Shown here: piece after piece, positions 2,723 through 64,000 of the stretch
Numbering within the stretch: position 1 is the stretch's first letter
How the letters are laid out: every line of letters begins with the position of its first letter
NCBI GenBank assembly: GCA_963774015.1
Contig: CAVZDH010000001.1
Span: 451,064 to 515,063, forward strand
Source of the DNA: an uncultured delta proteobacterium
GTDB taxonomy: Bacteria > Desulfobacterota > Binatia > UTPRO1
Reading direction: 5' to 3'
DNA length: 64,000 bases
Made by a program: the position numbers and the translations under genes
Notes under the pieces: generated by a model
The model's input: the letters and a program-made list of their open reading frames with translations, nothing else
Databases searched by the model: none
Told to the model about the DNA's origin: nothing

Positions 2723-3697
2723 TCATTCCCCCTCGGGAGGCGGCGCCAGCGGATCGAGGACGACGGCGCTTCGCGACGTCGGCGGCAGCACCTCGGCGAG
2801 TCCGGCGCGGATCGCGGTGACGAGGGCGTCGGTCACCCGGCGGCGGAGATGGCTGCGAGCGGTGACGAGCCCGATCTCCCGCACGGGAGCGGGGGCTACC
2901 AGCGGTCGGACCTGGCGCTTGCGCCGGGCGGCGGGCAGGGCGCGCACCACGAGCTCGGGCAGGACGGTCGCGCCGAGCCCCTCGTCCACGAGTCGCACCA
3001 GGGTCTCGAAGCTGCCGCTCTCGAACTGGATGCGTGCCGGGCGTGGACGGGGCTCGGCGCCGCAGTACGAGAGGACTTGGCTTCGAAAGCAGTGTCCCTC
3101 GGGCATGATCCAGAGCTCGCGCTCGCTGAGCGCGGTCTGGCTCACGGTCTTCCTGCGCAGCAGCGGGTCGCCGAGCGGGAGATAGGCGAGCAAGCGCTCG
3201 AGCCCCAACACCTCCTCGCGGAGGCCGGCGACCCGGAGCGGTGTCGCGACGAGCCCGGCGTCGAGCGTGTCGGAACGAAGCCGTGCGATCGCCTCTTCGG
3301 TCTTGAGCTCCTCGATCGCGAGCTCGACGCGCGGATGGGCGGCGGCGAATCCGCCGACGAAGAGCGGCAGGACCGTCGGCGCGAGCGTCGGGATGACCCC
3401 GAGCCGAAAACGGCCCGCGGGCTCGTCGCCCTCGGCCACGACCTGTCCGAGGCGCTCGGTCTCGCGCAGCACCGTCCGCATCTGCGCGAGCGCCGGGACG
3501 CCTTCCGGCGTGACGAGGAGGGGCTTCTTGCTGCGGTCGAAGAGCACCAAGCCGAGCAGACCCTCGAGCTTGCCGATCTGCATGCTGAGGCCGGGCTGGG
3601 AGACGTGGCAGCGCTCGGCGGCCTGACGAAAGCTGTGGGCGTCGTCGACGGCGATCGCATACCGCATCTGGGCGAGGGTGACCTGGCTCAGATCCAT
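2723..3697 (-). CDS. oxyR: LysR-family transcriptional regulator, OxyR-like
   Basis: N-terminal LysR HTH (LAQMRYAIAVDDAHSFRQAAERCHVSQPGLSMQIGKLE); divergently adjacent to ahpC, the canonical oxyR context. Confidence 0.75.
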   Translation of the reverse strand: MDLSQVTLAQMRYAIAVDDAHSFRQAAERCHVSQPGLSMQIGKLEGLLGLVLFDRSKKPLLVTPEGVPALAQMRTVLRETERLGQVVAEGDEPAGRFRLGVIPTLAPTVLPLFVGGFAAAHPRVELAIEELKTEEAIARLRSDTLDAGLVATPLRVAGLREEVLGLERLLAYLPLGDPLLRRKTVSQTALSERELWIMPEGHCFRSQVLSYCGAEPRPRPARIQFESGSFETLVRLVDEGLGATVLPELVVRALPAARRKRQVRPLVAPAPVREIGLVTARSHLRRRVTDALVTAIRAGLAEVLPPTSRSAVVLDPLAPPPEGE

Positions 3698-42522: not shown

Positions 42523-43110
42523 CCCGATCGCCAGATGATGACGACTGGTGATTCGCATCGTCGACTCCAGTCGCGCGAGGTTTCGCGCCGCTACGAAGAC
42601 CGCATGCGGTCCGTTGAGGGGGCCCGGTGGATCGCTACACTCATTGCGCGATCAGCGGAGGTGTCAAAGGAATTCGTCCACCACACTCACGAAAACGTGA
42701 TCCATTTCGGCATACGGATACCCGAGGATCGTGTCGTCATGGCGACGATCCGTGACGAGCTCCAGCTGCATCGCGCATGCCAACGCGTGACGCTGCCATC
42801 GCCCAGGGATTGTGTCGCCGTGATGTCGCTGCCGTTCTCGAATCGGGAAATTCTCCGCCGCCTTTTCTCAGCGCATGGACGGCGCGCCGCGGCCGCGGCG
42901 GCGCGCGATCACGTGGCCTTGCTACGACGGGGCGAATTGGGGAGTGCGACGACCAGGGAGGTTCCGCGGCAGTGGCGGTGATTTCGGGAACCGCGACAGA
43001 GGCGAGCGGTAGGCAGCGACGCGTGGTTCTTGCAGGCCGCAGTGCTGGCAGGCGGACGCCGCCCGCCATTGCGGCGAGCGGCGTCCCGTCCGTCCGAACG
43101 ACTACTTCTT

Positions 43111-45533
<2,423 letters not shown>

Positions 45534-45757
45534 GCGGGTGCCTCCTCCAAAAACTCGAGGCGGGAAGGGAGGACAGCCCGACCAGCCTCTAAGGTTTCGA
45601 GTGGTTGGCCGCCCGGACGAGAAGGCAAGGACGCCGTGACGTCTGCTTCCCGCGAGCGCTTCTGCGCACTCCCGACGAACTTGCCGGCCGCCCGAGGACG
45701 GGCCGGCATGAAAACCGGCGTTGTCTAGCATCGGACGGGGGGAATTGCGAGAGCGCG

Positions 45758-46482: not shown

Positions 46483-46671
46483 GTGATCGGCAACGCCGTG
46501 CATGTCATGCGCATCGCGACCGGCGAGGTGGAGGATCAGGTGCGCGACCCGGCGAAGGAGCACATGCGCCAGGGCGGGCTCAAGGGCGGCGTGGCGCGGA
46601 AGAAGGCGTTTTCACCTGAGAAGCGGAAGGCGATCGCGAAGAAGGCTGCGCGTGCGCGCTGGGGGAGTTAG
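46483..46671 (+). CDS. Small hypothetical protein with basic Lys/Ala-rich C-terminus
   Basis: 62-aa ORF; C-terminus GGLKGGVARKKAFSPEKRKAIAKKAARARWG; converges on the PIN-like gene; coding status uncertain. Confidence 0.3.
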   Translation: MIGNAVHVMRIATGEVEDQVRDPAKEHMRQGGLKGGVARKKAFSPEKRKAIAKKAARARWGS

Positions 46672-47108
46672 TCCCCTCTTCGACGGCTTCGACGATGCAG
46701 GGTCAGTAGGTCTGTTTCCGTGTAAACCTTCACTATTTCCCCATCAGCCGAAATCTTGGTGAAGAACGGGGCCGGGTAGCGGTTGATCACGCGGGCCATG
46801 CCTCGCAACCCGTCGTCAAACGCTTGCGCCATTCGGTCGGCAGTCATGTCCGCCCTGGTGAACCCAAACAGGCGAGCCCGTGATTGTAGGATCTCGAGCC
46901 GTTCACTGACGTCGCTGACTATGCCGTCGTTCTTGGTGAGGCCGATCCAACCGCTTCGACCCACAAGACGAATCCAGGGTTCGTCGCCGCCCTCTGGCTG
47001 CTGATCCAGGTTGTTGCCCGCGAACAGAAGGGCGTGTTCGCGAATAGGCCAACCGCGTTCGCGTAACAGAGTCGGGAGTCTCCGACCGAGGGATCGATCG
47101 GTGAACAC
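46668..47108 (-). CDS. DUF5615-like PIN-type protein (putative toxin)
   Basis: 146 aa; N-terminus FTDRSLGRRLPTLLRERGW resembles the DUF5615 (Mut7-C/PIN-like) start; immediately downstream of and co-oriented with a DUF433 gene, the usual partner. Confidence 0.5.
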   Translation of the reverse strand: MFTDRSLGRRLPTLLRERGWPIREHALLFAGNNLDQQPEGGDEPWIRLVGRSGWIGLTKNDGIVSDVSERLEILQSRARLFGFTRADMTADRMAQAFDDGLRGMARVINRYPAPFFTKISADGEIVKVYTETDLLTLHRRSRRRGD

Positions 47109-47128
47109 TCCGGTCTGTGCAACGATCG

Positions 47129-47896
47129 CTAGGCTGCGTTCTCGTAGAGCAACGCGTCCGTGATGTCCGCCAGCGGCCGGCAGTAGTCCTCGGCGAGCGC
47201 CTCGATCGATTCACCGGCGCGTTTTCGTTCAGCCACGATTCGGGTACGGATATCGGTTCCGGCGATCACGGGTCGCCCATAGGCGTAGCGTGGGTGAATC
47301 AGGATGCGTCGGGCACTCGGAGCGGGGCCATCGATCTGGGCTTCTGTAGCGAAGGGAAACACGCCGATAGCGCCTGCCGGGTCGAATTGAATGCGTTCCA
47401 AGTAGCGGATTAGGACGTCACGCATGCCAACCTGGGCAACCGATGGGCTATCGGAGATATTCAACACAACCGCATCTTCGAGCGAATCCAGAAACAGACT
47501 GTACCCGTCCGTCAGCATCCGCGACGTTGCTAACGGATGTTCGGATTTGAATTCCCTGCGCAGATGCACTATTGCGTTGCGTACTTTCGGTAGCTTGATC
47601 CCGTAACGACGCCGTACCGAATCGAGTACAAAAACTTCCACGAGATTCGTAAACGACAGCAAACCGCGTTCGCGGTCAGCTATCTTGATCAGCGGATGCC
47701 ACGTCCGGTGACCGTCAGATACCGGATAGTCTCGACCGTACACCCAGGTGCGAACGGTGCTCGCCGGAACCTTCAAGTAGCTCGCGGCGCTAGCGACTGG
47801 GTAGTTCGGGACATGTCGCGGATCGACATCGCGGTAGCTCAGTATCGTGTCCGCTTTTGGCATCTTGACGTACCTGCACCAAGCATACACGGGCAC
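47129..47896 (-). CDS. HTH plus DUF433 domain protein (putative antitoxin/regulator)
   Basis: C-terminal DUF433 signature RILIHPRYAYGRPVIAGTDIRTRIVAERKRAGESIEALAEDYCRPLADITDALLYE; N-terminal HTH-like segment (AASYLKVPASTVRTWVYGRDYP); central region unassigned. Confidence 0.65.
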   Translation of the reverse strand: MPVYAWCRYVKMPKADTILSYRDVDPRHVPNYPVASAASYLKVPASTVRTWVYGRDYPVSDGHRTWHPLIKIADRERGLLSFTNLVEVFVLDSVRRRYGIKLPKVRNAIVHLRREFKSEHPLATSRMLTDGYSLFLDSLEDAVVLNISDSPSVAQVGMRDVLIRYLERIQFDPAGAIGVFPFATEAQIDGPAPSARRILIHPRYAYGRPVIAGTDIRTRIVAERKRAGESIEALAEDYCRPLADITDALLYENAA

Positions 47897-48060
47897 GGCA
47901 GTTCAAGGGAGAGCCGTTTGCATTCGCTAAGTTAGCGGACTGCCGAGAACATCAAGGGGCTGGTCGTTCTCCGGTCGTGCGTCGAGACGGTAGATTACCG
48001 GGCGACAATCAGGTGAAACTTTTGCTTGACACTCAAGTATTATTGTCATATCATTGCGGC

Positions 48061-48969
48061 ATGAACAAGTTGCCGGTTGCCACGCGGGTCCAGATCCTCT
48101 CGATGCTCTGCGAAGGCTCCTCGATGCGCTCGATCAGCCGGGTCGCTGACGTCTCGATCAACACCGTCGCCCGCTACCTCGTGATCGCCGGCAAAGCGTG
48201 CAGCGCGTTCCACGACGTCACCGTTCGCAACGTCGCTGCGAAGCGCGTGCAGTGCGACGAAATCTGGTCGTTCGTCGGGATGAAGGAGAAGGCCGCGAAG
48301 GCGAAGGCGTCGAAGGACGAGCGACCCGCGAACGTCGGCGACGTGTGGACGTGGACAGCGATCGACGCCGACTCGAAGCTGATCGTGTCGTGGCTCCTCG
48401 GCGGTCGCGATGCAGGGTGCGCGTGGGAGTTCATGACCGACGTCGCGTCGCGGCTTGCGAACCGCGTGCAGCTCACGACCGACGCGCACAAGGCGTATCT
48501 CACGGTCGTGCCCGAGGCATTCGGCTTCAACGTCGACTACGCGCAGATCGTCAAGGTCTACGGCGCCGATCCGAAGGAGGATCAGCGCCGCTACTCCCCG
48601 GCGCAGTGCCTCGGCGCCGAGAAGCTGCACATTCACGGCTACCCGAAAGACGAACACATCTCGACGTCGTATATCGAGCGCAGCAACTTAACGCTCAGAA
48701 TGGCGAACCGCCGCTTCACGCGGTTGACCAATGCGTTCTCGAAGAAGCTGGAGAACCACGCGCACATGGTCGCGCTCTACACGTGCTGGTACAACTTCGT
48801 GAAGATGCACAAGACGATTGGCTGCACCCCCGCGATGGCGGCCGGCGTGATCGACACGCTCTGGTCGATGACCGATCTCGTGGCGCTCGTCGACAAGTAC
48901 GACGACGCGCAGCCGCGCAAGAAGGCGGGGCGTAAGCCGAAGGCGACCGATCCGGGTTCTCAGTCATGA
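48061..48969 (+). CDS. IS1-family transposase (fused InsA-like HTH and InsB-like DDE domain)
   Basis: InsB-like blocks VQCDEIWSFVGMKEK, WTWTAIDADSKLIVSW, LTTDAHKAYL, IERSNLTLRMANRRFTRLTNAFSKKLENHAHMVALYTCWYNFVKMH match E. coli IS1 InsB pattern (VQSDELWTFVG...IERHNLNLRQ...); N-terminal HTH VATRVQILSMLCEGSSMRSISRVADVSINTVARYL. Confidence 0.85.
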   Translation: MNKLPVATRVQILSMLCEGSSMRSISRVADVSINTVARYLVIAGKACSAFHDVTVRNVAAKRVQCDEIWSFVGMKEKAAKAKASKDERPANVGDVWTWTAIDADSKLIVSWLLGGRDAGCAWEFMTDVASRLANRVQLTTDAHKAYLTVVPEAFGFNVDYAQIVKVYGADPKEDQRRYSPAQCLGAEKLHIHGYPKDEHISTSYIERSNLTLRMANRRFTRLTNAFSKKLENHAHMVALYTCWYNFVKMHKTIGCTPAMAAGVIDTLWSMTDLVALVDKYDDAQPRKKAGRKPKATDPGSQS

Positions 48970-49154
48970 GCCCGAAGGTCCGACGAGTGCTCGTCGGCTT
49001 CATTATCAGCTTCCTGATTCTTACTGGCTGCGAGGTCGCTGCGCGACTCTATCTCGACTGGGTTAAGACGAGCGGGGCATCCCGAGCCTGCACTGCACTC
49101 GGCGGCACGTGGGATGCGCCGGCCCGGCATTGCGCGAGCCCGGAATCAAACTGA
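48966..49154 (+). CDS. Small hydrophobic peptide ORF translationally coupled to the IS1-type transposase
   Basis: ATG overlaps transposase stop (ATGA); predicted TM or lipoprotein-like segment VLVGFIISFLILTGC; 3' end overlaps right inverted repeat; coding status uncertain. Confidence 0.3.
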   Translation: MSPKVRRVLVGFIISFLILTGCEVAARLYLDWVKTSGASRACTALGGTWDAPARHCASPESN

Positions 49155-49162: not shown

Positions 49163-51085
49163 TGCGCCGGTCAAAACCGGCAAGGTGTTGTGGATGAAAG
49201 AGCCACACGATGAAGGAGTAGCGACCCACATCGGCCCCGAGTCATGCGTCGCTGTCCGTGAGGGCAGAGGCGAAGCGTTGACAGGGGTACGTGCAGGCCA
49301 GCCATGGAGCCGCGAAAATCAATTATAGCCTCGGGTGCCGACGCTCTTAGTGTAAGCGGAAGGCAACATCGCAGTGCGTCGATATCGCGAGAGGCGGCGG
49401 ACCCGGCGCGGTCGAAGACCCTGCGCATGCACGGAAACACTTTGCACGGGAACCGGGAGATCCCGCCACCGTCTGGGAGCCGGAGTGGCCCAGACCGCAT
49501 CGGGAAGTCGAGAGACGCAATCCGATGACGCACGGTGACGGGAAGTCGGACACCGCCGTAGTACCGAGAGAAGCTGCCGAACAAAGCTGCGGAACCAGCG
49601 GCGGAGGCGGTGGAGGGAAGGGCGGTGGCCAAGGGGAAGACGCTCGAGCGTAACACGCTCCGGACGCAGAGCCGGGAAGGTGTGCCCAGCGCGCTCGAGC
49701 GGATACGAGAGGCCGCAAGGCAACAGAAGCAGCTGCGTTTCACCGCGCTCCTGCACCACGTCTACGACGTCGAACGGCTGCGGCGGGCCTACTACGCACT
49801 GAAGCGAGAGGCGGCGGCGGGAATCGACGGGGAGACGTGGAAGCACTACGGCGAGCAGTTGGGAGAAAATCTGCAAGACCTGTCCCAGCGGCTCAAACGG
49901 GGAGCGTACCGAGCCAAGCCTGTACGGCGGGCGTACATCGAGAAGGCGGACGGGCGGCAGAGGCCGCTCGGCGTTCCCGTGCTGGAGGACAAGATCGTCC
50001 AGCGCGCCGTCGTCGAGGTGCTCAACGCCATTTACGAACAGGACTTTGCGAGGTTCTCGTATGGATTCCGCCCGGGGCGCGGACCGCATGATGCCCTGAA
50101 CGCGCTGACGGTGGCGATCCAGACCAGAAAGGTGAGCTGGGTGCTCGACGCGGACATCAGAAGCTTCTTCGACACGCTGGAACACAGCTGGTTGGTGAAG
50201 TTCGTCGAGCATCGGGTGGCAGACCGGCGCATCGTGCGCCTCATCCAGAAGTGGTTGAGGGCCGGGGTGCTGGAAGAAGGTCGGCGGACACGTAGCGAGG
50301 TAGGGACGGTACAGGGCGGAAGCATCAGCCCGCTGCTGGCCAATATCTACCTGCACTACGTGTTCGATCTGTGGACCCAGCGATGGAGAAAGAAGCAGGC
50401 GCGCGGACAGGTCATCGTCGTGCGCTACGCCGACGACTTCGTCCTTGGGTTCGAGCATCGCCACGAGGCCGAGCAGTTCCTCGTGGATCTCAAGCAGCGG
50501 TTTTCCCAGTTTGGCTTGGAGCTGCACCCGGAGAAGACCAGACTGATCGAGTTCGGGCGGTTCGCCGCCAGCAATCGCGATCGGCGAGGACAGGGAAAGC
50601 CCGAGACCTTCGACTTCCTTGGCTTCACGCACAGCTGCGGGAAGACGCGGAAGACGGGGAGCTTTGTGGTGCTGCGGCGAACGATGCGCAAGCGGATGGC
50701 GGCGAAGCTGCAGGAAGTGAAAGCCGAACTGCGACGACGTCGGCACACGACCCTTGGCGAGCAGGCGGAGTATCTGCGAGCGGTGGTGCAAGGGCACATG
50801 CGGTACTATGGCGTGCCCCGCAACTTTCCAGCGCTCAACGCGTTCCGCTGGGCGCTCGGCCGACTGTGGTGGCGGTCGTTAGGCCGCCGCAGTCAACGCG
50901 GCCGCATCCCCTGGCAGCGCATGACGCGTATCCTACGTCTGGCACTGCCGCGTGTTCGCATCTGTCATCCCTATCCGTCCTTGGACGCATCTCGTCAGAA
51001 CCTGAGGCAGGAGCCGGATGCGGTAATGCCGCACGTCCGGATCTGTGCGGGGGGCGCCGAGCGATCGGCGTCCCTACCGCGACCC
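49163..51085 (+). mobile_element. Bacterial group II intron (ribozyme plus intron-encoded protein)
   Basis: 5' end GTGCGCC at 49163 (consensus GUGYG); RT/maturase ORF; domain V-like hairpin at 51011-51043; GNRA-capped hairpin at 51050-51073; 3' end near 51083-51085 (CGAC/CC), boundary +/- 3 nt. Confidence 0.8.
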
Positions 51086-51130
51086 GCCGCGTGGGAGGCC
51101 CTCATGGCCGCTGCCGGGGCGGAGAGATAA
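49610..51130 (+). CDS. Group II intron-encoded reverse transcriptase/maturase
   Basis: RT domains 0-7 (RPLGVPVLEDKIVQRAVVEVLNAIYEQDFARFSYGFRPGRGPHDAL; DADIRSFFDTLEH; YADDFVLGF) and maturase X domain; no HNH endonuclease domain seen; computed ORF runs through domain V, so true C-terminus is uncertain. Confidence 0.9.
   Translation: MEGRAVAKGKTLERNTLRTQSREGVPSALERIREAARQQKQLRFTALLHHVYDVERLRRAYYALKREAAAGIDGETWKHYGEQLGENLQDLSQRLKRGAYRAKPVRRAYIEKADGRQRPLGVPVLEDKIVQRAVVEVLNAIYEQDFARFSYGFRPGRGPHDALNALTVAIQTRKVSWVLDADIRSFFDTLEHSWLVKFVEHRVADRRIVRLIQKWLRAGVLEEGRRTRSEVGTVQGGSISPLLANIYLHYVFDLWTQRWRKKQARGQVIVVRYADDFVLGFEHRHEAEQFLVDLKQRFSQFGLELHPEKTRLIEFGRFAASNRDRRGQGKPETFDFLGFTHSCGKTRKTGSFVVLRRTMRKRMAAKLQEVKAELRRRRHTTLGEQAEYLRAVVQGHMRYYGVPRNFPALNAFRWALGRLWWRSLGRRSQRGRIPWQRMTRILRLALPRVRICHPYPSLDASRQNLRQEPDAVMPHVRICAGGAERSASLPRPAAWEALMAAAGAER
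51011..51043 (+). ncRNA. Group II intron catalytic domain V
   Basis: GAGCCGGAUGCGG-UAAU-GCCGCACGUCCGGAUC closely matches the domain V consensus GAGCCGUAUGCGAU-GAAA-GUCGCACGUACGGUUC, including the AGC triad. Confidence 0.6.
51086..51095. repeat. Right copy of 10-bp flanking direct repeat GCCGCGTGGG
   Basis: Identical to 45758-45767; lies just 3' of the group II intron. Confidence 0.55.
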
Positions 51131-53758: not shown

Positions 53759-56700
53759 TCAGTCGGCCTTGGCGGCGAACGTCGTCGCGTCCTGCTTCTT
53801 GAAAGGCGCGCTGAAGACGGACTCCCAGCACGTGCCGGTCGCGTGGTTCACGAGCTGCACGCGCACGGGCGAGAGCAAGGCGGCGAGGCTCGGCGGCATG
53901 TCGAGCCGGTCCCCCTTGCCCTTCACCTGGATCTTGGCCTTGCCGGCGACGAGACCTTCGCGGAGCTGGAGCTGCGCGACGCCGTCCGGCGTGAGGTCGC
54001 CGTCCTTGTAGTCGAAACCCGTCTTCTTCTCGCGCCAGCACGCCTTGCCCTTGGCGCAGAAGCCGCCGGGCGGCACGATCGCCGTCGTGACGAGCCCGGT
54101 CGCGTCGTAGAGGCAGAGCTCGTAGCGGTCGGTGGTGAGCGGCTGCCCGAAATCGGCCTTCGTCGTGACGGCGCCCCTCGCCCACTTCCAGGCGAGCTGG
54201 TCCTTGGCGTCGGGGCTCTTGTCCTTGAGGAGCAGGCTCGCCTTGCCGGCGACGGCCGGCAAGCGGCAGCCGGCGAGCGGCGCCGGCGCGCACTCGCGGA
54301 GACAATCGGAGGAGCAGCCGTCGCCGCTCGCGGTGTTACCGTCGTCGCATTCCTCGGCGAGCTCGAGCACGCCGTCGCCGCAGGTCTGCACGTCGCAGGC
54401 GTCGCCCGTGCCGTCGCCGTCGGTGTCGCTTTGCGAGGGGTCGAAGGCCTCGGGACAATCGTCCTGCGCGTCCGGGACGCCGTCGTCGTCGGCATCGGCG
54501 GGCGTCGTCACGGCGGTCACGAGGGTCGGGAGGCAGCTCGCCCCGCTCGGGCAGTCGGGCGGCGTCGTCACCTCGGGACGACACGTCGCCGGCTGCCGCA
54601 GGATGCAGCGCCGGCAGTCGACGTCGGTCGCGCAGGCGAGCCCGGTGTAGCGCGTGCAGGTTCCGGTCGCGGTCGCGCAGGTGTCGAGGTCGCAGAAGGA
54701 GCCCGCGCCGCAGTCGGCGTCGACACCGCAGGGGATCGCGAGGTCGCAACGCCCGGCGGGGGCGAGGAAGACGCGCGTGTCCTCGGGCACGCGGAGCGGA
54801 TCCTGCCCGCCCGGGTCGACACGGCCGATCACCGTCACCGTCTCGGTGCAGAAGTCGTAGACCTGAATCACGAGGTCGCCGGGAAAGCCCTCGACGCTCA
54901 GGTCCTGGCCGCCCTGCTCGGCCTCGAGCGTCAGGAACGTCACCTTACTGCCGTCGATCTTGTAGGGTTCGCGCGGATCGCAGGCAGCGAGCCGGCACGG
55001 CGTCACCGCCTGGCGCACGTTCTTGAGCTCGCCGCTCACGGCGTCGTAGACCTGCAGCACGTCGTCGAGCGTATCGACGTCGGCCGGCACGCCGACGCCG
55101 CCGTTCAGGTTGGTGGCGTTCTCGGCCGCTTCGTTGGCGCTGAACGCCACGAGCTGCCGCGCGCCGCAGGTGGTCACCGCGGGCGCACCCAGCACGAAGT
55201 CGTCGGCCGCGACCCGGACGCCGGCCGTGCAGCTCGGCGCTCCGGGGCCGGTCGGCGTGCAGGCGAGCGGCGTGCCGGCGAGCGAGTACACCTGCAGCAC
55301 GCGGTCGGTCGCGTCGACGTCGGCGTTCAGCAGCGCGCCGCCCTGCACCGCCTCCGACGTGAGGAAGCCGACGACGTCACCGTTGATCGCGAGCGCCTCG
55401 CCGGCTTGCCCGGTGCTGATCCACGACCCCGCCGTCGCACCCGGGAGGGCATTCACCGCGACGACGTCGTCGCCGGCGTCGCCGTCGCCGTTCAGATCCG
55501 TTCCGCCGTCCGGGCATCCCGTGGTCACGGCGCCCGCCGTTCCGCACTCCGAGACGAGCGCCGCGAGCCCGCTCGTCGACGCCGCGACCGCCGTCGCCGC
55601 GCGCGCGAGGTTCACGACTGATCCGCCCTCCCAGAGCTGCACCACGTCGTCCGTCGTGTCGGCGTCCGGCGGGTTCAACGACCCGCCCGGACACGCGCCG
55701 GTCCCGACCGCCGACTCGGGCCGCAGGAACACCGCCGTCCCGTCGCTCGCCACCGCGACGTCGTCGGCGGGACAGAGCGTCGTCGTCGTCGCGCTCGCGG
55801 AATCGAGCACCTCGAGGACGGTGTCGTCGAGCGCGCCGTCGGCGAAGAGCGCATCGGCGCCGAGGGGGTCGGCGGGGTCAGTGCCGTGGACGAAGACGTC
55901 CCGGAAGCCGTTGGTGTCGTTGCCGACCCCGACGAGATTCGTCGCGTCGCTCAGGAACGCCACCTCGCGGGCGTCGCGCGACAGCCCGAGGAAGCCGTTC
56001 ACCGTACCACCTCCGCCGGTGGCCTCCTCGCCGGCGAGGCCGACGTTCACGCGCGTGGTCACGCCGCTCTCGCGGTCGGAGAGGAAGATGTCGCCGGCCC
56101 CGTTCGTGTCGAGCCCGGCGCCGAGGAGATTCGTCGCGCTGCTGTAGAACGCGACGTACCGCCCGTCCGGCGAGATCGTGACGTCGGTCGGCGGAGCGTC
56201 CGGGCTCGTCCCGCCGGGACCGCGTCCGACGAGCGTCGTCACCCCCGTCAAACGATCGTGGACGAAAGCATCGGTCGCGCCGTTGACGTCTGCTTCTGCT
56301 GTGAGATTGCTCGCGCCGCTCTCGAACGCGACGAAGCGACCGTCGGCGGACATCGTGACGCGAGAGAAGCCGGATGCGCCATTGCTCTCGATGCCGCCGG
56401 GTCCGATGCTGACCCGCTCGTTCGCACCGGTCTGCCGGTCACGCACGAAGACGTCCGAGACGCCGTTGGTGTCGAGACCCGGGTCGAGGAGGTTCGAAGC
56501 GGTGCTCGTGAAGGCGACGTAGCGCCCGTCGGCGGAGATGGCGGGCCACTCACCGGATCCGCTCGGCGGCTCCGCGCCGCCTGGACCGACGTCGACCCGC
56601 TCCGTCGTGCCGAGCAAGCGGTCGCGCACGAAGACGTCGCGGTTGCCGTTGGTGTCGCCACCCGGCCCGAGCAGATTGGTCGCATCGGACGCGAAGACCA

Positions 56701-59008
56701 CGAAGCGACCGTCGGCAGAGAGCGCCGGAATTACCGAGTGGCCGTCGCCTTCGAGGCCGCCGGGCCCGACGCTCACGCGCTCGGTCACGCCCGTCCCGAG
56801 ATCGTGCACGAAGACGTCGATGAAGCCGTTGGTGTCGCCCCCCGGCCCGAGCAGGTTGGTCGCATCGCTTGCGAAGGCGACGTGCTGCCCGTCGGCCGAG
56901 ATGGCGACGAACCCCGAACCTACGAACGGTGTGCCGTTGGCCTCGAGGCCGCCCGGGCCCACGCTCACGCGTGTCGTCGTGCCCGCCACGCGATCCCGGA
57001 CGAAGACGTCCTCGGCTCCGTTCGTATCGCCGCCCGGTCCGAGGAGATTCGCCGACGTGCTGGAGAAGGCGACGTACCGACCGTCTGCCGAAATGCCGAG
57101 GCCTGCGTTCGTCGAGCCGCCGCCCGCGCTCGCCTCGACGCCGCCCGGACCGAGGTTCGCGCGCCCGGTCGTCTGCTGCGCCGCTCCCGTCTCCGGCCGC
57201 CGGTAGAATACCTCGCCGCTCGCCACCATCAGGCCCTGCCCGTTGATCCGCGGCGCCGGGTCGACGACGCGCGGCGGGCTCAGGCTCGCGGTCACCTCGC
57301 CGGCGCCGAGCTTGAAGACGCGCAGGATCGCGTCCGCGCGGTCGTAGTCGCCGTTCTCGTCGCAGTAGTTCTGCGCTGCCTCCGACTCGAGGAAGGCGAG
57401 GACGTCGTTCTCGACCGCGACGGCGGGGAACGAGAACACGCCGTCCTGCACGCGCACGGCGGCGCGGCCCTCGGGCGTACCGGCGAGGCCGCACGCGGGG
57501 AGCGGCGCACCGCCGACCGCGAAGCCGTCGGGTGCGCCGAGCGGCTGCACGACGCCGGTCGCGCGGTCGCGGAGGATCGCGACTGCATCCAGCAGATCCG
57601 TGTCGCCGTTCCGCTGCACGCCGTCGATCGCCTCCTCGACGACGAACGAGCGAAGGTCCGGGCTCGCGGCGAGGCCGTCGAGCGGGACCGGCGTGTTGGC
57701 CTGGATGCTGTAGCCGACGCAGGCGTTGAAAGCCCCCGGGCAGTCGCCCGGGCCGCTGCACGCTTGATAGGGCGTGAGCTGGCAACGACGCGGGGCCGCG
57801 CGGTCGAGGTAGAGGCCGCCGGCCGTGCTCGCGCCGGCAAGGTCGTAGAGCGCGCCGCAGGGCGCGGCACCGCCGCAGTCGCCGTCGGTCGCGCAGGGGA
57901 GCGCCGGGTTGCCGACGCAGCTCGTCGCGCACGTTCCGCCCGGACAATCGAGGATGGTCGCGCAGCGCGCGCCCGCGTTCGCGCCGGCGCTGCACGTACC
58001 GTGGTGGCGCGCGACGCGGAGGATCGTGTAGGGCGCGTCGGTCGAGCCGAAGAAGCGCACGAAGTCGGAGGTGCTCGCCGATTGATCGAGCTGGGGCTCG
58101 AAGATCGGTCCGAGACGCTTCCCTTCGGGCGTGAAGCTCGTGAGGAACACTTGCGCCGGGATCTGCACCGGGAAGCCCACCGGCGCGCTGATCGCGGTGC
58201 TGAGGAGGCGCGGCACCGGTACGCGCGCTTGCGGCACGAGGATGCCTTGCCAGGCGATCGGCATCAGCACGTTGCCGCTCGCGTCGAGCGCGGCGCGGAG
58301 TTCCGGCGCCGTCGGGTTGCAGGGCGGGTCGAGGAAGCAGTCGCGCTGGTAGTCGTTCGGCGGCGGCAGCGCGGTGAAGCTCGCGAACTCGGGGTTCGGG
58401 ATCCCCGTGCCGCAGCTGCCGTCGTTCACGAAGAAGTCGTCGATGCAGGCGACCAGCCCGCTCTGCGCGGCGCACGGCACCGCCGCCAGGTTGCAGGGGA
58501 GCGGATCGGTGCGGCGCGTGACGGCGATCCGCGCCGGACCCGCGAGTGTGCGGTCGTCGCTCGGGGTGCCGACCGCGTCGTCGGTGTCGGGGAAGCGGAA
58601 GCCGAGCTCCACGTGCCCTTCGCGCTCGACCGTCGCGAGCCCCGCGGTCGCGTCGGCGACGCACGCGAGCATCGCGGGCGGGAGGTCGCAGGCCGCGAGC
58701 TGGTGTGCGAGCGCGTCGCAGTCCGCGTCGGGCGAGAGCACGCGGAGCGCGTTCGTGCCCGATCCCGGGAACGCCACCGTCACGACGTAGTCGCCGGTCG
58801 TGAGCGAGAGGCCGGGCGACCCGGCGGCGTCACAGGAGCGGAGCGCCACCGCGACGCGCTCGCCGGGCGCCGCGTAGGGCCGGTCGGTCGTCCCGAGGAC
58901 GCCGTTGAAGGAGGCAGTGGTGCCAGGGATCAAGTTGCACCCGGCCTGCACGATGCGCGGCAGGGCGAGCAGCAGCAGGATCGTCAAGAGCGAACGGGCG
59001 GCCCGCAT
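53759..59008 (-). CDS. Giant secreted protein (1749 aa): TolB-like beta-propeller repeats, thrombospondin type-3 calcium-binding repeats, myxo-type cysteine-rich repeat and conserved C-terminal domain
   Basis: Signal peptide MRAARSLLTILLLLALPRIVQAG; 9 or more tandem ~53-aa repeats (ISADGRYVAFSSTSANLLGPGGDTNGAEDVFVRDRVAGTTTRVSVGPGG); TSP3-like DADDDGVPDAQDDCPEAFDPSQSDTDGDGTGDACD; Cys-rich CGDGVLELAEECDDGNTASGDGCSSDC; C-terminal domain shared with the 5129-6851 protein. Confidence 0.85.
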   Translation of the reverse strand: MRAARSLLTILLLLALPRIVQAGCNLIPGTTASFNGVLGTTDRPYAAPGERVAVALRSCDAAGSPGLSLTTGDYVVTVAFPGSGTNALRVLSPDADCDALAHQLAACDLPPAMLACVADATAGLATVEREGHVELGFRFPDTDDAVGTPSDDRTLAGPARIAVTRRTDPLPCNLAAVPCAAQSGLVACIDDFFVNDGSCGTGIPNPEFASFTALPPPNDYQRDCFLDPPCNPTAPELRAALDASGNVLMPIAWQGILVPQARVPVPRLLSTAISAPVGFPVQIPAQVFLTSFTPEGKRLGPIFEPQLDQSASTSDFVRFFGSTDAPYTILRVARHHGTCSAGANAGARCATILDCPGGTCATSCVGNPALPCATDGDCGGAAPCGALYDLAGASTAGGLYLDRAAPRRCQLTPYQACSGPGDCPGAFNACVGYSIQANTPVPLDGLAASPDLRSFVVEEAIDGVQRNGDTDLLDAVAILRDRATGVVQPLGAPDGFAVGGAPLPACGLAGTPEGRAAVRVQDGVFSFPAVAVENDVLAFLESEAAQNYCDENGDYDRADAILRVFKLGAGEVTASLSPPRVVDPAPRINGQGLMVASGEVFYRRPETGAAQQTTGRANLGPGGVEASAGGGSTNAGLGISADGRYVAFSSTSANLLGPGGDTNGAEDVFVRDRVAGTTTRVSVGPGGLEANGTPFVGSGFVAISADGQHVAFASDATNLLGPGGDTNGFIDVFVHDLGTGVTERVSVGPGGLEGDGHSVIPALSADGRFVVFASDATNLLGPGGDTNGNRDVFVRDRLLGTTERVDVGPGGAEPPSGSGEWPAISADGRYVAFTSTASNLLDPGLDTNGVSDVFVRDRQTGANERVSIGPGGIESNGASGFSRVTMSADGRFVAFESGASNLTAEADVNGATDAFVHDRLTGVTTLVGRGPGGTSPDAPPTDVTISPDGRYVAFYSSATNLLGAGLDTNGAGDIFLSDRESGVTTRVNVGLAGEEATGGGGTVNGFLGLSRDAREVAFLSDATNLVGVGNDTNGFRDVFVHGTDPADPLGADALFADGALDDTVLEVLDSASATTTTLCPADDVAVASDGTAVFLRPESAVGTGACPGGSLNPPDADTTDDVVQLWEGGSVVNLARAATAVAASTSGLAALVSECGTAGAVTTGCPDGGTDLNGDGDAGDDVVAVNALPGATAGSWISTGQAGEALAINGDVVGFLTSEAVQGGALLNADVDATDRVLQVYSLAGTPLACTPTGPGAPSCTAGVRVAADDFVLGAPAVTTCGARQLVAFSANEAAENATNLNGGVGVPADVDTLDDVLQVYDAVSGELKNVRQAVTPCRLAACDPREPYKIDGSKVTFLTLEAEQGGQDLSVEGFPGDLVIQVYDFCTETVTVIGRVDPGGQDPLRVPEDTRVFLAPAGRCDLAIPCGVDADCGAGSFCDLDTCATATGTCTRYTGLACATDVDCRRCILRQPATCRPEVTTPPDCPSGASCLPTLVTAVTTPADADDDGVPDAQDDCPEAFDPSQSDTDGDGTGDACDVQTCGDGVLELAEECDDGNTASGDGCSSDCLRECAPAPLAGCRLPAVAGKASLLLKDKSPDAKDQLAWKWARGAVTTKADFGQPLTTDRYELCLYDATGLVTTAIVPPGGFCAKGKACWREKKTGFDYKDGDLTPDGVAQLQLREGLVAGKAKIQVKGKGDRLDMPPSLAALLSPVRVQLVNHATGTCWESVFSAPFKKQDATTFAAKAD

Positions 59009-59058
59009 CGGGATGTCCTCCAGAGTGCACGAGCGACGAAGCGGAGCCCGAGCACGAA

Positions 59059-59108
59059 GCAGATCGAACCTATCGAGGTGAAAACGTCGGTTCACGCACA
59101 AAGACTGC
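59059..59108. repeat. Left copy of ~50-bp imperfect direct repeat flanking a lower-GC cassette
   Basis: AGCAGATCGAACCTATCGAGGTGAAAACGTCGGTTCACGCACAAAGACTG vs 60071-60120 AGCAGATCGAATGACATCGAAGATTCGAACGTCAGTTCACGCAGAGATTG (~80% identity with small indels); on the minus strand the stop TGA of the right copy corresponds to CGA in this copy. Confidence 0.6.
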
Positions 59109-59383
59109 TCGAACCTTTGCACAGCCTTGGCTCCCTGCCAAAGAAAACGGCGACCAAGAACCTGCGCCAATTTAGTGCAACGAGAATCGCGGTCAGAGTT
59201 CTCGCGAAAAGCTTCGACGGACGTCTCCCCGCCGCTGCCGTCATCATCGTGTCCCGCGGCGTCGGCACCGGTTTGGCGAGGCGAAAGTGTCATCAGTCGG
59301 CCAGCGGTCTCACGGCGAGGTGCAGTGAGTTCTCCGAGCAGGTCGCGGAAGCCCCCGAGCGGTGGTCACGCCACTACCAAAGC

Positions 59384-59767
59384 TTACTTGACGACTTCAT
59401 TTATCTGATAGGACAAGGTCGTATAGCCGGCCCCAGAACCGGTAATCGCGGTAGCTGTGCAAAGGTTCGGGACACACCAAATTTCGCTTTCCTCGTAACC
59501 CACAGTACTGGAAGATAGTTCTTGAAGATTGCAGTCATAAAGCTTCACCGTGACTTGGCAACTCGTTCCCCCCGCGATGGTGACGCACGTGACGGGCTTC
59601 ATCGGCTTCACGGTACGGAACAAATATTTGCTTGTCCCACCGCATGCTATGGTTGCGTCGGCGCCTCCAATGGTTAGCCCTCCAGGAGAAAGGGCCCAAG
59701 CCGCGCGGAAGCTCGTCGCGATGGTCAGCGTGATTGCTACGCACAACATGATCGATCCATGCCTCAT
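59384..59767 (-). CDS. Small secreted hypothetical protein encoded in lower-GC cassette
   Basis: Signal peptide MRHGSIMLCVAITLTIATSFRAAWA; GAGGGAG RBS 7 nt upstream; 6 Cys in mature part; local GC ~55-58% vs ~70% surroundings. Confidence 0.5.
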   Translation of the reverse strand: MRHGSIMLCVAITLTIATSFRAAWALSPGGLTIGGADATIACGGTSKYLFRTVKPMKPVTCVTIAGGTSCQVTVKLYDCNLQELSSSTVGYEESEIWCVPNLCTATAITGSGAGYTTLSYQINEVVK

Positions 59768-60070
59768 TGTGATCTCCCTCTCGGCAAAACGTGTCCGGGC
59801 CAAATACAATAAGCGAGTCGCGACGAACCTCTTCGAACGCCAGGGCATTACGACCTCCTTTTGATTGGGCTGGTGTGTCGCGCTGAGGCGCGTGGTCGGT
59901 GGTTCCATGCTCGATCAAGGGGTGTAGAGTCGACATGAGAATTCTCCGCGGGAACCCGCTGGAAGCGGCTTTGGGCCCCTTGTCCGTCGACGAGGTAGTG
60001 AGGGATCGAGCGCGCATGCGGATGTCTTCCCCAGCGGCGTTCCGCGCAACGCACCAATGCGCAGACGCCG

Positions 60071-60120
60071 AGCAGATCGAATGACATCGAAGATTCGAAC
60101 GTCAGTTCACGCAGAGATTG
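60071..60120. repeat. Right copy of ~50-bp imperfect direct repeat (overlaps the 3' end of the 60102-62771 gene)
   Basis: See 59059-59108; this copy includes the terminal codons (NLCVN-stop) of the adjacent secreted protein gene. Confidence 0.6.
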
Positions 60121-62771
60121 GATTTCTGGATCGTCAACTTTCCGTAGCCGCGGTCCGCGAAGAAGCCGTCGACCACGAAGAAGTACTTGTGTCCGGAGAG
60201 CAACGAGATCTCGGTCTCCTCTCCTTTGCCGCCGTCGGGACAGTCGAAGTTGTCGTTGAAACAGCGCAGCTCCGAGCCCGTGCAGGTGTGGAATTGGGGA
60301 TCCTCGTCGCGGGCATACAGCTCGGTGTCGAAGTCGCTACGGCACGTCGTGAACTCGTAGCACCCGTCGCTTGACGGCGTGAAGCTGAAGACCTTTTCCG
60401 GGCCGGTGGTGCCGGTGACGTCGCACGAGCCGTTCTGCGTCGAGGCTCCCGAAGTTTGGGCTCCGACGATGACGACCGGGTATGGGTCGGCTTGCGACCC
60501 GGGGACCGCGCTCGGGATCGCGTAGGCGTTGCCGCACGTGCCGCCGCCTCCGCAGCCGCCACCGCAGTCGACGCAAAAATAGTCGTACTCGTCGACGACG
60601 TCGCCGCCGCGGGTGTCGCCGTTGTTGCAGCCCGCGTTCGGGAAGGTGCCGCAGTGCGCCTTCACACGTGTCGTTCCATCGACGCGGAGCTCCGCGCCGT
60701 AGATGTAGCCGTTGGCGCCGTTTTGGACCTTGACGTTGAGCACGTTCTCGCCGCAGAGGAGGGCGCTCGAAACATCGGCGAATCCGGTATCCTGTCCGTA
60801 GCTCGTTGCGGACAGGACCGGCTGCCCGTTGAGAAATGCGTCGATGCGATCGTCGGTGTCGTAGAGCCGAAGCGTCGCGACGTGGGGGGTGGCCGTGACG
60901 GTGGGTGTCGGCGTGCGGGTGGCGGTGGCGCTCGGCGTGAGTGTCGGCGTCGGCGTGCGCGTCGCCGTTCGAGTCGGAGTCGACGTCGAGACCGCAGTGG
61001 CGGTTGCGGTCGTGCTCGGAGTCGCAGTGCGCGTAGCGGTGACAACCGGCGTGGCCGTGATCGTCGGTGTTGCCGTCGGAGTCGAGACGGTGGTCGTCGT
61101 GGCCGTCGGCGGCGCGGTCGGCGTGGCGACGGGTGTCGTGCTAGGCGTCGGCGTGCTCGTCGGCGTCGTCGGCGGAGCGTCCGGATCCATCACGACCAGG
61201 AGCGGCGTGTACGCGCTCACCTCGCCGTCGACGCGGGTCGCGAGGCCGAGGGTGAAGGCGCAGGTCGGGAGCGGATCGAAGAACTCGACGTCGAGCTCGT
61301 CCTCCACTTCGGCATCGGGCGTCGGCGGCGGCTCGAGCTCCACCTCGAAGTGATCGGGATCACCTTGACCGTCGAGCAAGGTCACGATCAGCTGCGGCGG
61401 TTCGGTGAGCACGCCGGCAGCGGCTCGCGTCTTCGAGCCTCCGAGCGTGTAGCGGAAGGGGATCTTTGTGAGTGGACCGAAGGCTGGTCGGGAGACGAAG
61501 CTCACGGATCTCGGTGCACCGGGCCTCGCGAGCGGCGCGCCCGAAAGTCGGAGGCCGATCGTGGTCGAGCGCCGGATCGAGCGGATGATCTTCAACAAGC
61601 TGCCGAAGACCGAGTGCGGCGCCGCAATCGCCGGCGCCGCTTCGGTCAGTGCGGGACAAGTGGCAACGAGGTCCGGGGCGATCGCGCCGAGGCCGACCGT
61701 GTCGTCGAGGTCGGCGACGCGCGGTAACGCCTGCTGCGCGCCTTCGGCAGCCGAGCAGCGGGCCCGACGCGCGAGGCAGTCGGCGAGCGTTCCCGGACCC
61801 GTGACCGCCGGGACGCCGAGCGCGGTGCATGCCGGTTCGAGCGCTGTGAGGTTGAGGCCGTTGTCGGCCAGGAGCCGCGTGAAATCGACCACATCGGCCG
61901 CGCACTTGCCGTTTGTGAAGGTTTTCGTGAACCGCGTCAGGAGGCCGGCGATCTTCGCCGGCTGCTGGTTGCACGTCGTCGTGGTTTTCCGCTGGCAGAT
62001 CGTCGCGTCCTTGCTCGTCTGGGCGCACTCGAATGCCTTGGTCGCGCAACGAAGCAGGCTCTTCTGTACGCCGACGAGCAGCGTCTCGAGCGCATGGCTC
62101 GCCGCCTTGGCGCACGCGTTCACGGGCGTATCGTCGGGAGGCACGACGAAACAATCGCCGCAGCCCGGATATCGCGGCAGGCCATCGACCGTCGGCAGCG
62201 GCAAAGGCGCGTCGGGGAGAAGGTCGAGCAACTCGGCGCTGCGGGGCGCGCCGCGACCGTAGAGATCCGCGGCGGCGCGATCGGGGAGGCGTACCAAACA
62301 GGCTGCGAGCGGTGCGATGCCCTGGCAGACGTCGAGGCCGAGATCGCTCCGGCATCGGCTGGCGAGACGCCCGAGGCCGAGGCCTTCCTCTTTCAAAAGG
62401 TCCACGAGGTGCAGCTTCTCGTGACAGCTGGCGTTCGTGACGATCTTCGCCGCGAGCGCCGTCAGCGTCTTGTCGGTGCTCGCGAGCTTCTTCGCACAAC
62501 GCGCCGCCACCTTTCCGAGACACGTCGCATCGTCCCCTTTGGTCTGTATGCATGCCAGCGCGCCTCCGATGCACGTGTCGAGCACGTGCCCACGCTGCTG
62601 CTCTATTTTGGTGCTGGTTTTTGCGATCAACTTTTGACACGCGATCGCGGCTTTGCGTGCGAGCACGGTGGAGAGACCAGCGCTCGCGGTCACTCCGGCG
62701 GCTGGCGTCGTGAGGACGACGACTGCTGCCGCGAGGACGAGGCCGACGACCCAGTTCCTGCTCATTCTCAT
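60102..62771 (-). CDS. Secreted protein with Cys-rich helical N-terminal region, Thr/Pro-rich linker and C-terminal pre-peptidase-C-terminal-like domain
   Basis: Signal peptide MRMSRNWVVGLVLAAAVVVLTTPAAG; ~95-aa TP-rich low-complexity linker (TPTSTPTPSTTPVATPTAPPTATTTTV...); C-terminal Cys-containing beta-sandwich-like region. Confidence 0.7.
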   Translation of the reverse strand: MRMSRNWVVGLVLAAAVVVLTTPAAGVTASAGLSTVLARKAAIACQKLIAKTSTKIEQQRGHVLDTCIGGALACIQTKGDDATCLGKVAARCAKKLASTDKTLTALAAKIVTNASCHEKLHLVDLLKEEGLGLGRLASRCRSDLGLDVCQGIAPLAACLVRLPDRAAADLYGRGAPRSAELLDLLPDAPLPLPTVDGLPRYPGCGDCFVVPPDDTPVNACAKAASHALETLLVGVQKSLLRCATKAFECAQTSKDATICQRKTTTTCNQQPAKIAGLLTRFTKTFTNGKCAADVVDFTRLLADNGLNLTALEPACTALGVPAVTGPGTLADCLARRARCSAAEGAQQALPRVADLDDTVGLGAIAPDLVATCPALTEAAPAIAAPHSVFGSLLKIIRSIRRSTTIGLRLSGAPLARPGAPRSVSFVSRPAFGPLTKIPFRYTLGGSKTRAAAGVLTEPPQLIVTLLDGQGDPDHFEVELEPPPTPDAEVEDELDVEFFDPLPTCAFTLGLATRVDGEVSAYTPLLVVMDPDAPPTTPTSTPTPSTTPVATPTAPPTATTTTVSTPTATPTITATPVVTATRTATPSTTATATAVSTSTPTRTATRTPTPTLTPSATATRTPTPTVTATPHVATLRLYDTDDRIDAFLNGQPVLSATSYGQDTGFADVSSALLCGENVLNVKVQNGANGYIYGAELRVDGTTRVKAHCGTFPNAGCNNGDTRGGDVVDEYDYFCVDCGGGCGGGGTCGNAYAIPSAVPGSQADPYPVVIVGAQTSGASTQNGSCDVTGTTGPEKVFSFTPSSDGCYEFTTCRSDFDTELYARDEDPQFHTCTGSELRCFNDNFDCPDGGKGEETEISLLSGHKYFFVVDGFFADRGYGKLTIQKSNLCVN

Positions 62772-62925
62772 TCGCGATCCGGATGACGGCGCGTCGCTGT
62801 CGCGACGCAGAAGAAACTCTCCTCCTCTCACGAGGTGTGAAAATCGTGGGAACAGATGTTCCACGAGCTTTCACACCACTCTCGTCAGAACGCTCTCGCG
62901 CGGATGCGGGAAGGAGCCGAGACGT

Positions 62926-64000
62926 ATGACGACAACGAAGGTGGCTTCCGGAGCCGTGGGCCTCGCGATGCTGCCGGCGCCAATCGTGAGCGCGGCCATC
63001 GAACGCGGGATGCGAGGTGCGCGCGCTCGGAGCCGGGGCAGCGCCGGATCCGGACGGTTCCTGGCGGTCGCCTGCCTCGCGGTGGCGCTGCTCGTGGGTC
63101 GTCCGGCGGCAGGCGACGCAGCCACCTTCGTGGTGGACAGCACGCTCGACGTCGCCGACCTGACGCCGGCGGACGCGCTCTGCAAAACCCCGGCCGGCGC
63201 CTGCACGCTGCGGGCGGCGATCCAGCAGGCGAATACGCTGGCCGGCGTCGACACGATCGAAGTGCCCGCCGGCTACTATCAGCTGACGATCGCCGGTACG
63301 GGTGAGGATCTCGCCGCGACCGGGGACCTGGACGTCACCCAGAGCGTCGTCATCCGCGGCACCGGAGCCCCCGGAACCGTCACCATCGACGGAGGCTTCA
63401 TCGACCGCATCTTCCACGTTACGAGCGCCGGCGCGACGGTCACGATCGATGGGCTCTGGATGTACTACGGCGACGCGGGCGTGGACGTGGGCGGCGGCGT
63501 CTACAATGCAGGCACTCTCACGCTCACGAACTGCGTGGTCGTGGCGAGCCGGGCAGGCGCGGGTGGAGGCATCGAGAATGCCGGCGTGCTCATCGTCGTC
63601 GACAGCCTCGTAGGCGGGAACACGGTCACGGCGGGTTCGGGCGGCGGTCTCGAGAACGAGTCGGGCGCAACCATGACGCTGCGCCGATCCACCGTGGTGG
63701 ACAACGAAGCTTCCCCTTACGGCGGCGGCGGCATCGCCAATTTCGGATCCATCGAGGTGGCCGAGAGTCTTCTGACGGACAATCGGGTGCCGAGCGGCGC
63801 CGGTGGCGGTGGCTTCGCTACCGCGACGACCAATCCGTCCGTCCTCACGAACACCACCATCAGCGGCAACACGATCGACGGATCGGGGAGCGCCGGCGCG
63901 GGAATTCTCCTGGTGGGCAATGCACCGGCGACGCTCAACAACGTAACGATCGCCGACAACCATGGTGCTTTTGGATCGACGGGCGGTGGCATCGGGGCGA
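62926..64000 (+). CDS. Secreted CSLREA-type N-terminus / parallel beta-helix repeat protein (3' end beyond window)
   Basis: Read directly from sequence (not in ORF track because no stop in window): MTTTKVASGAVGLAML..., signal-like AVACLAVALLVGRPAAG, then ALCKTPAGACTLRAAIQQAN followed by repeated beta-helix strands (GGGIENAGVLIVVDSLVGGNTVTAGSGGG). Confidence 0.7.
   Translation, partial: MTTTKVASGAVGLAMLPAPIVSAAIERGMRGARARSRGSAGSGRFLAVACLAVALLVGRPAAGDAATFVVDSTLDVADLTPADALCKTPAGACTLRAAIQQANTLAGVDTIEVPAGYYQLTIAGTGEDLAATGDLDVTQSVVIRGTGAPGTVTIDGGFIDRIFHVTSAGATVTIDGLWMYYGDAGVDVGGGVYNAGTLTLTNCVVVASRAGAGGGIENAGVLIVVDSLVGGNTVTAGSGGGLENESGATMTLRRSTVVDNEASPYGGGGIANFGSIEVAESLLTDNRVPSGAGGGGFATATTNPSVLTNTTISGNTIDGSGSAGAGILLVGNAPATLNNVTIADNHGAFGSTGGGIGA

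Follow-up and report, generated by a model that had tools for sequence, protein, structure and literature searches.

A duplicated gene junction around a small secreted-protein gene in an uncultured Binatia bacterium, consistent with an old insertion

We analysed a stretch of 64,000 nucleotides (nt), here called the window, from an uncultured delta proteobacterium (Desulfobacterota; Binatia; UTPRO1; assembly GCA_963774015.1, contig CAVZDH010000001.1, positions 451,064 to 515,063). In this window the junction between two genes for large secreted proteins is present twice, and the two copies enclose a segment of lower GC content that carries a gene for a small secreted protein. The repeat unit is a duplicated gene junction, consisting of the end of the upstream gene, its stop codon, the spacer, a ribosome-binding site (RBS) and the start of the downstream gene. 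On balance we lean towards the view that foreign DNA was inserted at this junction long ago and that the junction was duplicated in the process, which would give the layout expected when a circle is integrated by a single crossover.

Results

Extent and significance of the repeat

All relevant genes lie on the minus strand, in the order 889-aa gene, 127-aa open reading frame (ORF; 59767→59384) and 1749-aa gene. The upstream gene (60102..62771) encodes a secreted orphan protein of 889 aa and terminates in a TGA at 60104-60102, so that its 3' end falls within one copy of the repeat, copy B. The downstream gene (53759..59008) encodes a secreted protein of 1749 aa and has its 5' end within the other copy, copy A. 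Copy A (58988..59194, 207 nt) and copy B (60000..60216, 217 nt), both on the minus strand, were delimited by local alignments, shuffle tests and direct reading. When A is read 59194→58988 and B 60216→60000, the full unit of ~210 nt shows 138 identities in 199 ungapped columns (69%) together with 26 gap columns. An earlier note on this DNA had described a repeat of ~50 bp and ~80% identity at 59059-59108. That repeat is present where it was placed, but it is part of a longer unit with a lower overall identity.

With strict scoring, a block of 44 columns with ~80% identity scored 33 against 20.8±2.4 for shuffled sequences, a score reached by 2 of 500 dinucleotide shuffles. Shared blocks are found at 59083-59098 and 60098-60113 (AACGTCRGTTCACGCA) and at 59058-59068 and 60071-60081 (AGCAGATCGAA), and a 2-nt indel separates the one from the other. 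The wider extent of the repeat was examined with a second scoring scheme suited to ~70% identity. By this scheme the core (A 59098→58988, B 60113→60000), in which the similarity spans the spacer, RBS and ATG up to codon 8 of the downstream gene, scored 25 against 9.8±1.5, or ~10 standard deviations above the shuffles, and none of 1000 shuffles reached this score. Upstream, the extension, which reaches back over the final ~37 codons of the 889-aa gene, scored 14 against 10.0±1.4 (reached by 23/1000) and is collinear with the core. Downstream, the similarity breaks off sharply, and no extension was found past ~codon 8 of the 1749-aa gene, where 613 of 1000 shuffles scored as well.

A scan of the whole window on both strands, equivalent to a search space of 128 kb, returned copies A and B as each other's best non-self match (24 vs ≤17) and found no third copy. 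Three collinear blocks occur in the same order in the two copies, at the near-constant offset of 1012-1022. Among 5421 nearby tile pairs, higher scores were seen only inside genes with internal repeats, several of which are confirmed protein-domain repeats, and the background of tile-pair scores is raised in high-GC coding DNA, with a 99th percentile of 31.

Functional and relic halves of the two copies

In copy B the 889-aa gene is functional over its last ~37 codons (60216-60105) and ends in the TGA, which is followed by an 84-nt spacer (60101-60018), the RBS-like GGGGAAGAC, an ATG (60017-60015) and what is left of the downstream gene's first ~6-8 codons as a relic (MRARSLTT). In copy A the last ~35 codons of the upstream gene (59194-59090) survive as a frameshifted relic, which runs into CGA (59089-59087) and a 78-nt spacer (59086-59009), and continues with the RBS GGAGGAC, the functional ATG (59008-59006) and the first codons of the 1749-aa gene. 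Both redundant halves, the gene end in copy A and the gene start in copy B, are relics. The distance from the conserved TGCGTGAAC block to the RBS plus ATG is nearly equal in the two copies (81/87 nt).

It had been claimed in the earlier note that one copy is a relic of the 3' end of the gene at 60102-62771 and that the stop codon had become CGA. Both claims were confirmed, as the TGA aligns with the CGA at 59089-59087 on the minus strand and the relic proved longer than had been thought. In translation, the gene-end relic of copy A still shows RRFLVAVFFGRE against KYFFVVDGFFADR, and past the frameshift SLCVN against NLCVN. The gene-start relic of copy B looks better preserved than this gene-end relic. 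At the gene start copy A reads GGAGGACATCCCG ATG CGG GCC GCC CGT TCG CTC TTG ACG (MRAARSLLT), and copy B reads GGAAGACATCCGC ATG CGC GCT CGA TCC CTC ACT ACC (MRA-RSLTT). Among the seven aligned codons after the relic ATG the amino acid is kept in six, and five of these six differ at the third base alone. This preponderance of third-base differences is a small hint that one copy may have diverged at a time when it was still coding and have arrived already diverged, as a donor-derived junction would.

An ORF of 160 aa (59535..60017, minus strand) has the relic ATG of copy B as its start codon and shares part of its sequence with the small gene, in a different frame. It lacks a coding-type composition (GC at codon positions 1/2/3 of 0.64/0.52/0.60) and has no hydrophobic segment after MRARSLTT, and is probably not a gene.

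Composition of the inserted segment

Between the copies lies a unique segment of 805 nt (59195..59999, minus strand) with a GC content of 0.579, as defined by tblastn and blastn, the extension test and GC. Neither tblastn nor blastn detected any similarity between this segment and either flanking gene or anything else in the window. The GC content of the window as a whole is 68.7%, and that of the neighbouring coding DNA is ~0.72, compared with 0.58 for the insert. Taken over 200 nt at a time, GC is 0.52-0.64 over 58950-60400, 0.70-0.77 on the side of the big gene and ~0.62-0.73 inside the 889-aa gene. The earlier note had reported a lower-GC segment between the copies. Formal calculation bore this out for the insert, but the low GC of 60102-60400 comes from the amino-acid composition of the native gene: it is confined to codon positions 1 and 2, and the GC content at third codon positions (GC3) is 0.85, and therefore this part is native coding sequence and not foreign DNA. 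The 889-aa gene is native by codon usage throughout (GC3 0.83; 0.85 over the last 300 nt), and the 1749-aa gene has a GC3 of 0.92.

The small gene itself has a GC content of 0.536 and a GC3 of 0.61, below all 37 long coding-like ORFs of the window (minimum 0.66, median 0.86). The gene nearest to it in GC3 is a DUF433/helix-turn-helix (HTH) antitoxin-like gene of a toxin-antitoxin pair in a patch of mobile elements. Such a GC3 could be explained by partial amelioration of a gene from a donor of ~50-55% GC, which is our inference and not a computed value.

The small secreted protein

The small gene (59384..59767, minus strand) encodes a protein of 127 aa with seven cysteines and a predicted eight-strand jelly roll. 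A Shine-Dalgarno-like AGGGAG (59774..59779, minus strand) was read directly from the sequence 6 nt ahead of its ATG, and a Sec-type signal peptide, MRHGSIMLCVAITLTIATSFRAAWA, with predicted cleavage ahead of LSPGG, was recognised by inspection. A word-indexed protein search returned only the protein itself. An exhaustive HMMER search of 1.84 billion representatives retrieved P0006 and P0007 (32% identity; E 7e-8 and 1e-7), both of them small secreted proteins that match the query in size, and a profile search added a third (P0011). Overall these three distant homologues are 28-32% identical to the query, with E values of 3e-8 to 1e-7 for the sequence alone and 1e-22 to 1e-54 with the profile. 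All four proteins have in common the motif PGGxT[IV]GG...CGG and four invariant cysteines. The contigs of the homologues are all metagenomic and shorter than 1.3 kb, and hence provide no gene context. No Pfam or NCBIfam family, the DUF3992 profile included, matched the small protein at E≤0.01, and metagenome scans for the family found nothing.

An AlphaFold2 model built from the four-row alignment gave a β-sandwich of eight strands with a pLDDT (predicted local distance difference test score) of ~90 over residues 30-127. Since there are distant homologues, conserved cysteines and a confident fold, we take the protein to be real, and a de novo or spurious small ORF was ruled out on the same grounds. 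The description in the earlier note of a small secreted Cys-containing protein with its own RBS was thus upheld. Judging by these searches and the model, the family would be a very rare one, with four members, of secreted jelly-roll proteins. The gene is presumably expressed from the strand that its neighbours also use.

The folds closest to the model are those of Ena/DUF3992 and PirA, at an identity of 9-15%, and the likeness is at fold level only. Ena subunits, which belong to endospore appendages, assemble into disulfide-linked fibres through an N-terminal connector that contains Cys. The small protein is predicted to share the jelly-roll fold of the Ena subunit, but it has no match to the profile, and the first Cys in its mature form of 99 residues is C42. 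In addition, residues 80-123 (…CTATAITGSGAGYTTLSYQI…) matched repeated strands of giant cadherin-like/Big_9 proteins (P0005, P0008 and P0009; 977-5992 aa, E 3e-8 to 2e-5), which probably reflects a shared β-strand motif rather than common descent.

Assembly check and candidate elements that were rejected

A misassembly was ruled out because the same structure is present in an independently assembled Logan contig (L001, run ERR11523651), which is 99.99% identical across the region, the sole difference being a 1-nt indel near 63035.

A perfect inverted repeat of 16 nt has one arm, CGAACCTTTGCACAGC, at 59110..59125 (plus strand) inside the relic part of copy A and the other at 59454..59469 (plus strand) inside the small gene (codons P-N-L-C-T-A), in its conserved C-terminal coding part. 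It is the longest inverted repeat in the window within 500 nt, and 12 of 100 whole-window shuffles hold one of this kind. In the predicted RNA fold, which has a z-score of -0.54, a long-range stem is closed by pairing of the two arms; in minus-strand RNA they would enclose a 328-nt loop with the 3' end of the small gene. It may be a chance product. A miniature inverted-repeat transposable element (MITE) bounded by these arms was rejected on the shuffle result, the position of one arm in conserved coding sequence and the lack of a target duplication. More generally, the layout of an insertion sequence (IS) or MITE, with terminal inverted repeats and a short flanking target duplication, was not found, the sole notable inverted repeat being internal.

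The reverse transcriptase (RT) gene in the window prompted us to consider the copies as the template repeat and variable repeat (TR/VR) of a diversity-generating retroelement. This was rejected, as A is involved in only 8 (copy A) or 14 (copy B) of the 61 mismatches. A group II intron at 49.2-51.1 kb accounts for the window's sole RT, and no TR/VR-like repeat was found near it. A ~1-kb tandem duplication whose interior had decayed was likewise rejected, since the interior resembles neither flanking gene and nothing of the downstream gene is found past codon 8; for the same reason the small ORF does not derive from a decayed duplicate. A structured RNA or riboswitch in the repeat was dismissed as well: Rfam had no match at E≤1 over the repeat and insert, the fold z-scores were +1.4 and -0.9, and the apparently compensatory pairs come from two sequences only. 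A scan of the minus strand revealed no sigma-70-like promoter, no terminator was detected in the repeat region, and a search of the repeat by eye only for motifs of extracytoplasmic function (ECF) or sigma-54 type gave nothing convincing.

Discussion

We propose that the ancestral locus would have consisted of the 889-aa gene, a spacer of ~80-90 nt and the 1749-aa gene. Foreign, lower-GC DNA of ~0.8 kb with one gene for a small secreted protein would then have entered the junction, and the event would have left on each side a junction copy of ~210 nt that runs from the end of the upstream gene through the spacer into the start of the next one. Such a layout results when the chromosome and a circle that bears a junction-like segment recombine by a single crossover (Campbell-type integration), for which either a site-specific recombinase, giving attL and attR, or homologous recombination could have been responsible. 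Both redundant halves would have decayed afterwards, with the stop turning into CGA, frameshifts accumulating and identity falling to 69%. The small gene would have stayed intact with its own RBS, and each flanking gene would have been kept whole by the copy that adjoins it. Since ~31% of the aligned positions are mismatched, the event would be old. Furthermore, since the present identity is far too low for RecA, either the event is old or the donor copy was already diverged when it arrived.

Campbell-type integration generically yields a repeat, an insert and a second repeat, in which the duplicated segment is the shared homology and both flanking genes are intact, and the layout of the locus matches this. 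Such integration is known mainly from plasmids and laboratory constructs, whereas at this locus we infer the circle as well as its origin and the system that recombined it. In the earlier note the locus was read as an insertion by site-specific recombination at the 3' end of a gene, or as a duplication relic, that had delivered the small gene. An insertion that delivered the gene and left a duplication relic fits our results; the site-specific route was not borne out, there being no integrase and no third copy in the window and no identical core longer than chance would give.

Several points weigh against an insertion of this kind. A Pfam survey of the ~40 ORFs of the window and of 5.6 kb beyond it found no recombinase or integrase; the only mobile-element genes there, a group II intron RT and an IS1-like transposase, are 8-11 kb away. 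The copies share no identical core longer than expected by chance: their longest identical runs are 11, 9, 9 and 7 nt, and by our own estimate chance alone would give runs of ~10 in ~200 columns that are 69% identical. It had been proposed in the earlier note that other copies of the repeat be sought, and a pattern scan of 185,579 species genomes, which do not include the source genome, gave nine matches, all of them unrelated. Plasmid, phage and viral collections yielded no homologue of the insert. There is neither an empty site nor a second insertion at hand for comparison, and the flanking genes are without orthologues in the databases, the 889-aa gene having none among 5.8 billion proteins. 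The low GC of the small gene (at codon positions 1 and 2) is partly due to its amino-acid composition, as it is in the homologue on contig L002, and non-coding or short intergenic DNA of this genome reaches ~0.57 GC. Finally, the third-position argument for the gene-start relic is based on seven codons, and it lacks significance when set against a model of synonymous-only change in the functional copy.

The same final layout could have been reached locally in two steps, if slippage or illegitimate recombination first doubled the ~210-nt junction in tandem and the small-gene DNA then landed between the copies, or, in a variant, if the ends of a staggered break were filled in and end joining ligated foreign DNA into it. 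Such an origin would account for the lack of a recombinase nearby, and the decay of both redundant halves would be equally expected. However, it calls for two independent rare events at one spot, which no sequence feature demands, and the mostly synonymous differences in the gene-start relic are slightly easier to understand if one copy came already diverged. We regard a two-step origin as unlikely. It seems decidedly unlikely that the repeat was instead kept as a module of promoter, 5' leader and RBS that drives both the small and the big gene, in the manner of a mobile promoter. An RBS and an ATG do end both copies at a near-equal distance from the TGCGTGAAC block, and it is common in prokaryotes for unrelated genes to be preceded by duplicated upstream regions (PMC3488235). 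Putative mobile promoters were defined as sequences of ≥50 nt at ≥80% identity upstream of coding sequences that are not homologous (Matus-Garcia et al. 2012, PMC3488235), and our copies resemble them as similar sequences of ~100 nt that lie directly upstream of the start codons of non-homologous sequences in one genome. Yet the best block here is ~80% identical over 44 columns, with 69% overall, which falls below that threshold. Moreover, ~105 nt of the repeat is a coding relic, with frameshifts, of the end of the upstream gene, and regulation gives no reason for its presence; together with the first codons of the downstream gene it marks the repeat as a duplicated junction and not a promoter module. 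The ATG of copy B also lies 250 nt from the RBS and ATG of the small gene itself, and the promoter, RNA-fold and Rfam searches described above gave nothing that would speak for regulatory reuse.

It could also be asked whether there was any event at all, the repeat being a product of chance and of signals common to both places (RBS, ATG and codons for a signal peptide), with the small gene a resident of unusual composition. The 50-nt block alone is only moderately significant (2/500 shuffles) after a search by eye of 64 kb, and the background in high-GC coding DNA is elevated. Against this stand the core score, the mutual best match in 128 kb, the three collinear blocks at near-constant offset and the restriction of better tile pairs to genes with internal repeats, all of which make this explanation very improbable. 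We give still less credence, and indeed hardly any, to a minimal cassette that is still mobilisable, akin to an integron cassette or a cis-mobilizable element (CIME) and excisable by a recombinase encoded elsewhere in the genome. Direct repeats do flank a single promoter-proximal ORF in a unit of cassette size (~0.8-1 kb), as in integron gene cassettes. However, the attC core (GTTRRRY/RYYYAAC) is absent from both strands over 58980-60230, which ruled out an integron attC; no attC-like hairpin family matched, no intI was found among the scanned ORFs, there is no array, and only two copies of the repeat occur in the window. CIMEs have been defined as elements that have lost their integration genes and retain attL and attR (PMC5704250). 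The locus resembles them, and 3'-end elements with attL and attR in general, in that direct repeats flank DNA of foreign composition, one of them completing the target gene and the other being a displaced, non-functional copy, and in the absence of an integrase (as in a CIME). It differs in that the repeats are ~210 nt long, 69% identical and rich in indels, with no recognisable or extended identical core, in that they also cover the start of the next gene, and in the size of the insert, which is 0.8 kb with one gene. Furthermore, no cognate integrase, empty site or second copy was found here, and no other copy turned up in the genome, metagenome, viral, plasmid and phage collections searched. 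As far as can be seen, the locus would be an insertion scar and not an active mobile element.

A more speculative version of the insertion, which we put forward as improbable, would make the locus the fossil of a minicassette that had no integrase and homed to gene junctions. It would have been a circle with one gene and a ~210-nt junction copy from a related host, spreading among relatives by a homology-driven single crossover. The duplicated leader would keep the giant gene expressed and place the passenger under the same control, and the passenger, in a Myxococcota-like bacterium, would be the first of a rare family of Ena-like jelly-roll proteins that are secreted and disulfide-bonded, and might serve as a fibre or adhesin subunit alongside the neighbouring giant proteins.

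If an old insertion with junction duplication is the right reading, the locus is a clean and datable case of a single orphan gene entering an operon-like row of giant secreted-protein genes without disruption of its neighbours, since the duplication of the junction left one of them its end and the other its start and leader. On that reading the event is of an ordinary kind, an old horizontal insertion scar that is unusually legible, around a very rare gene for a small secreted jelly-roll protein. The locus reveals no new mechanism.

Neighbouring genes and other features of the window

The locus forms part of a row of giant Cys-rich secreted proteins (53759-59008, 62856-64000 and L001 1-6716) with CSLREA-like β-helix, PD40 and DUF4215 domains, several of which share a similar C-terminal module (…K.S.L..K……L.WKW..G…C.YDA…). 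The 1749-aa protein has PD40 repeats, DUF4215 and the TIGR02232 cysteine-rich repeat, the last of which is typical of Myxococcota-like bacteria. Its only detectable relative in the metagenome contigs of the Joint Genome Institute (JGI) is L012 (Ga0335082_10003775, 20-3415), with 38% identity over residues 430-1492; that contig begins at residue ~430, so the upstream region is outside it. The 889-aa gene encodes a Thr/Pro-rich linker, with repeats at the DNA level at 60885-61184.

A complete-looking group II intron lies at 49197-51083 (plus strand). Rfam RF02005 (D1-D4) matched 49197-49421 with 180 bits, domains V/VI (RF00029) are at 51009-51083, and the RT ORF spans 49562-51130 (RVT_1, E 9e-40). 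A low-GC (0.58-0.61) patch of mobile or selfish genes lies at 46500-49000, with a PIN_10 toxin gene (46668-47108, minus strand), its DUF433/HTH partner (47129-47896, minus strand; GC3 0.66) and an IS1-like DDE transposase ORF (47977-48969, plus strand). The gene for an H+-translocating pyrophosphatase (42737-45731, minus strand) is broken up into three ORFs that lie in different frames (Pfam H_PPase profile positions 3-98, 371-420 and 556-644), which reflects either a pseudogene or assembly frameshifts.

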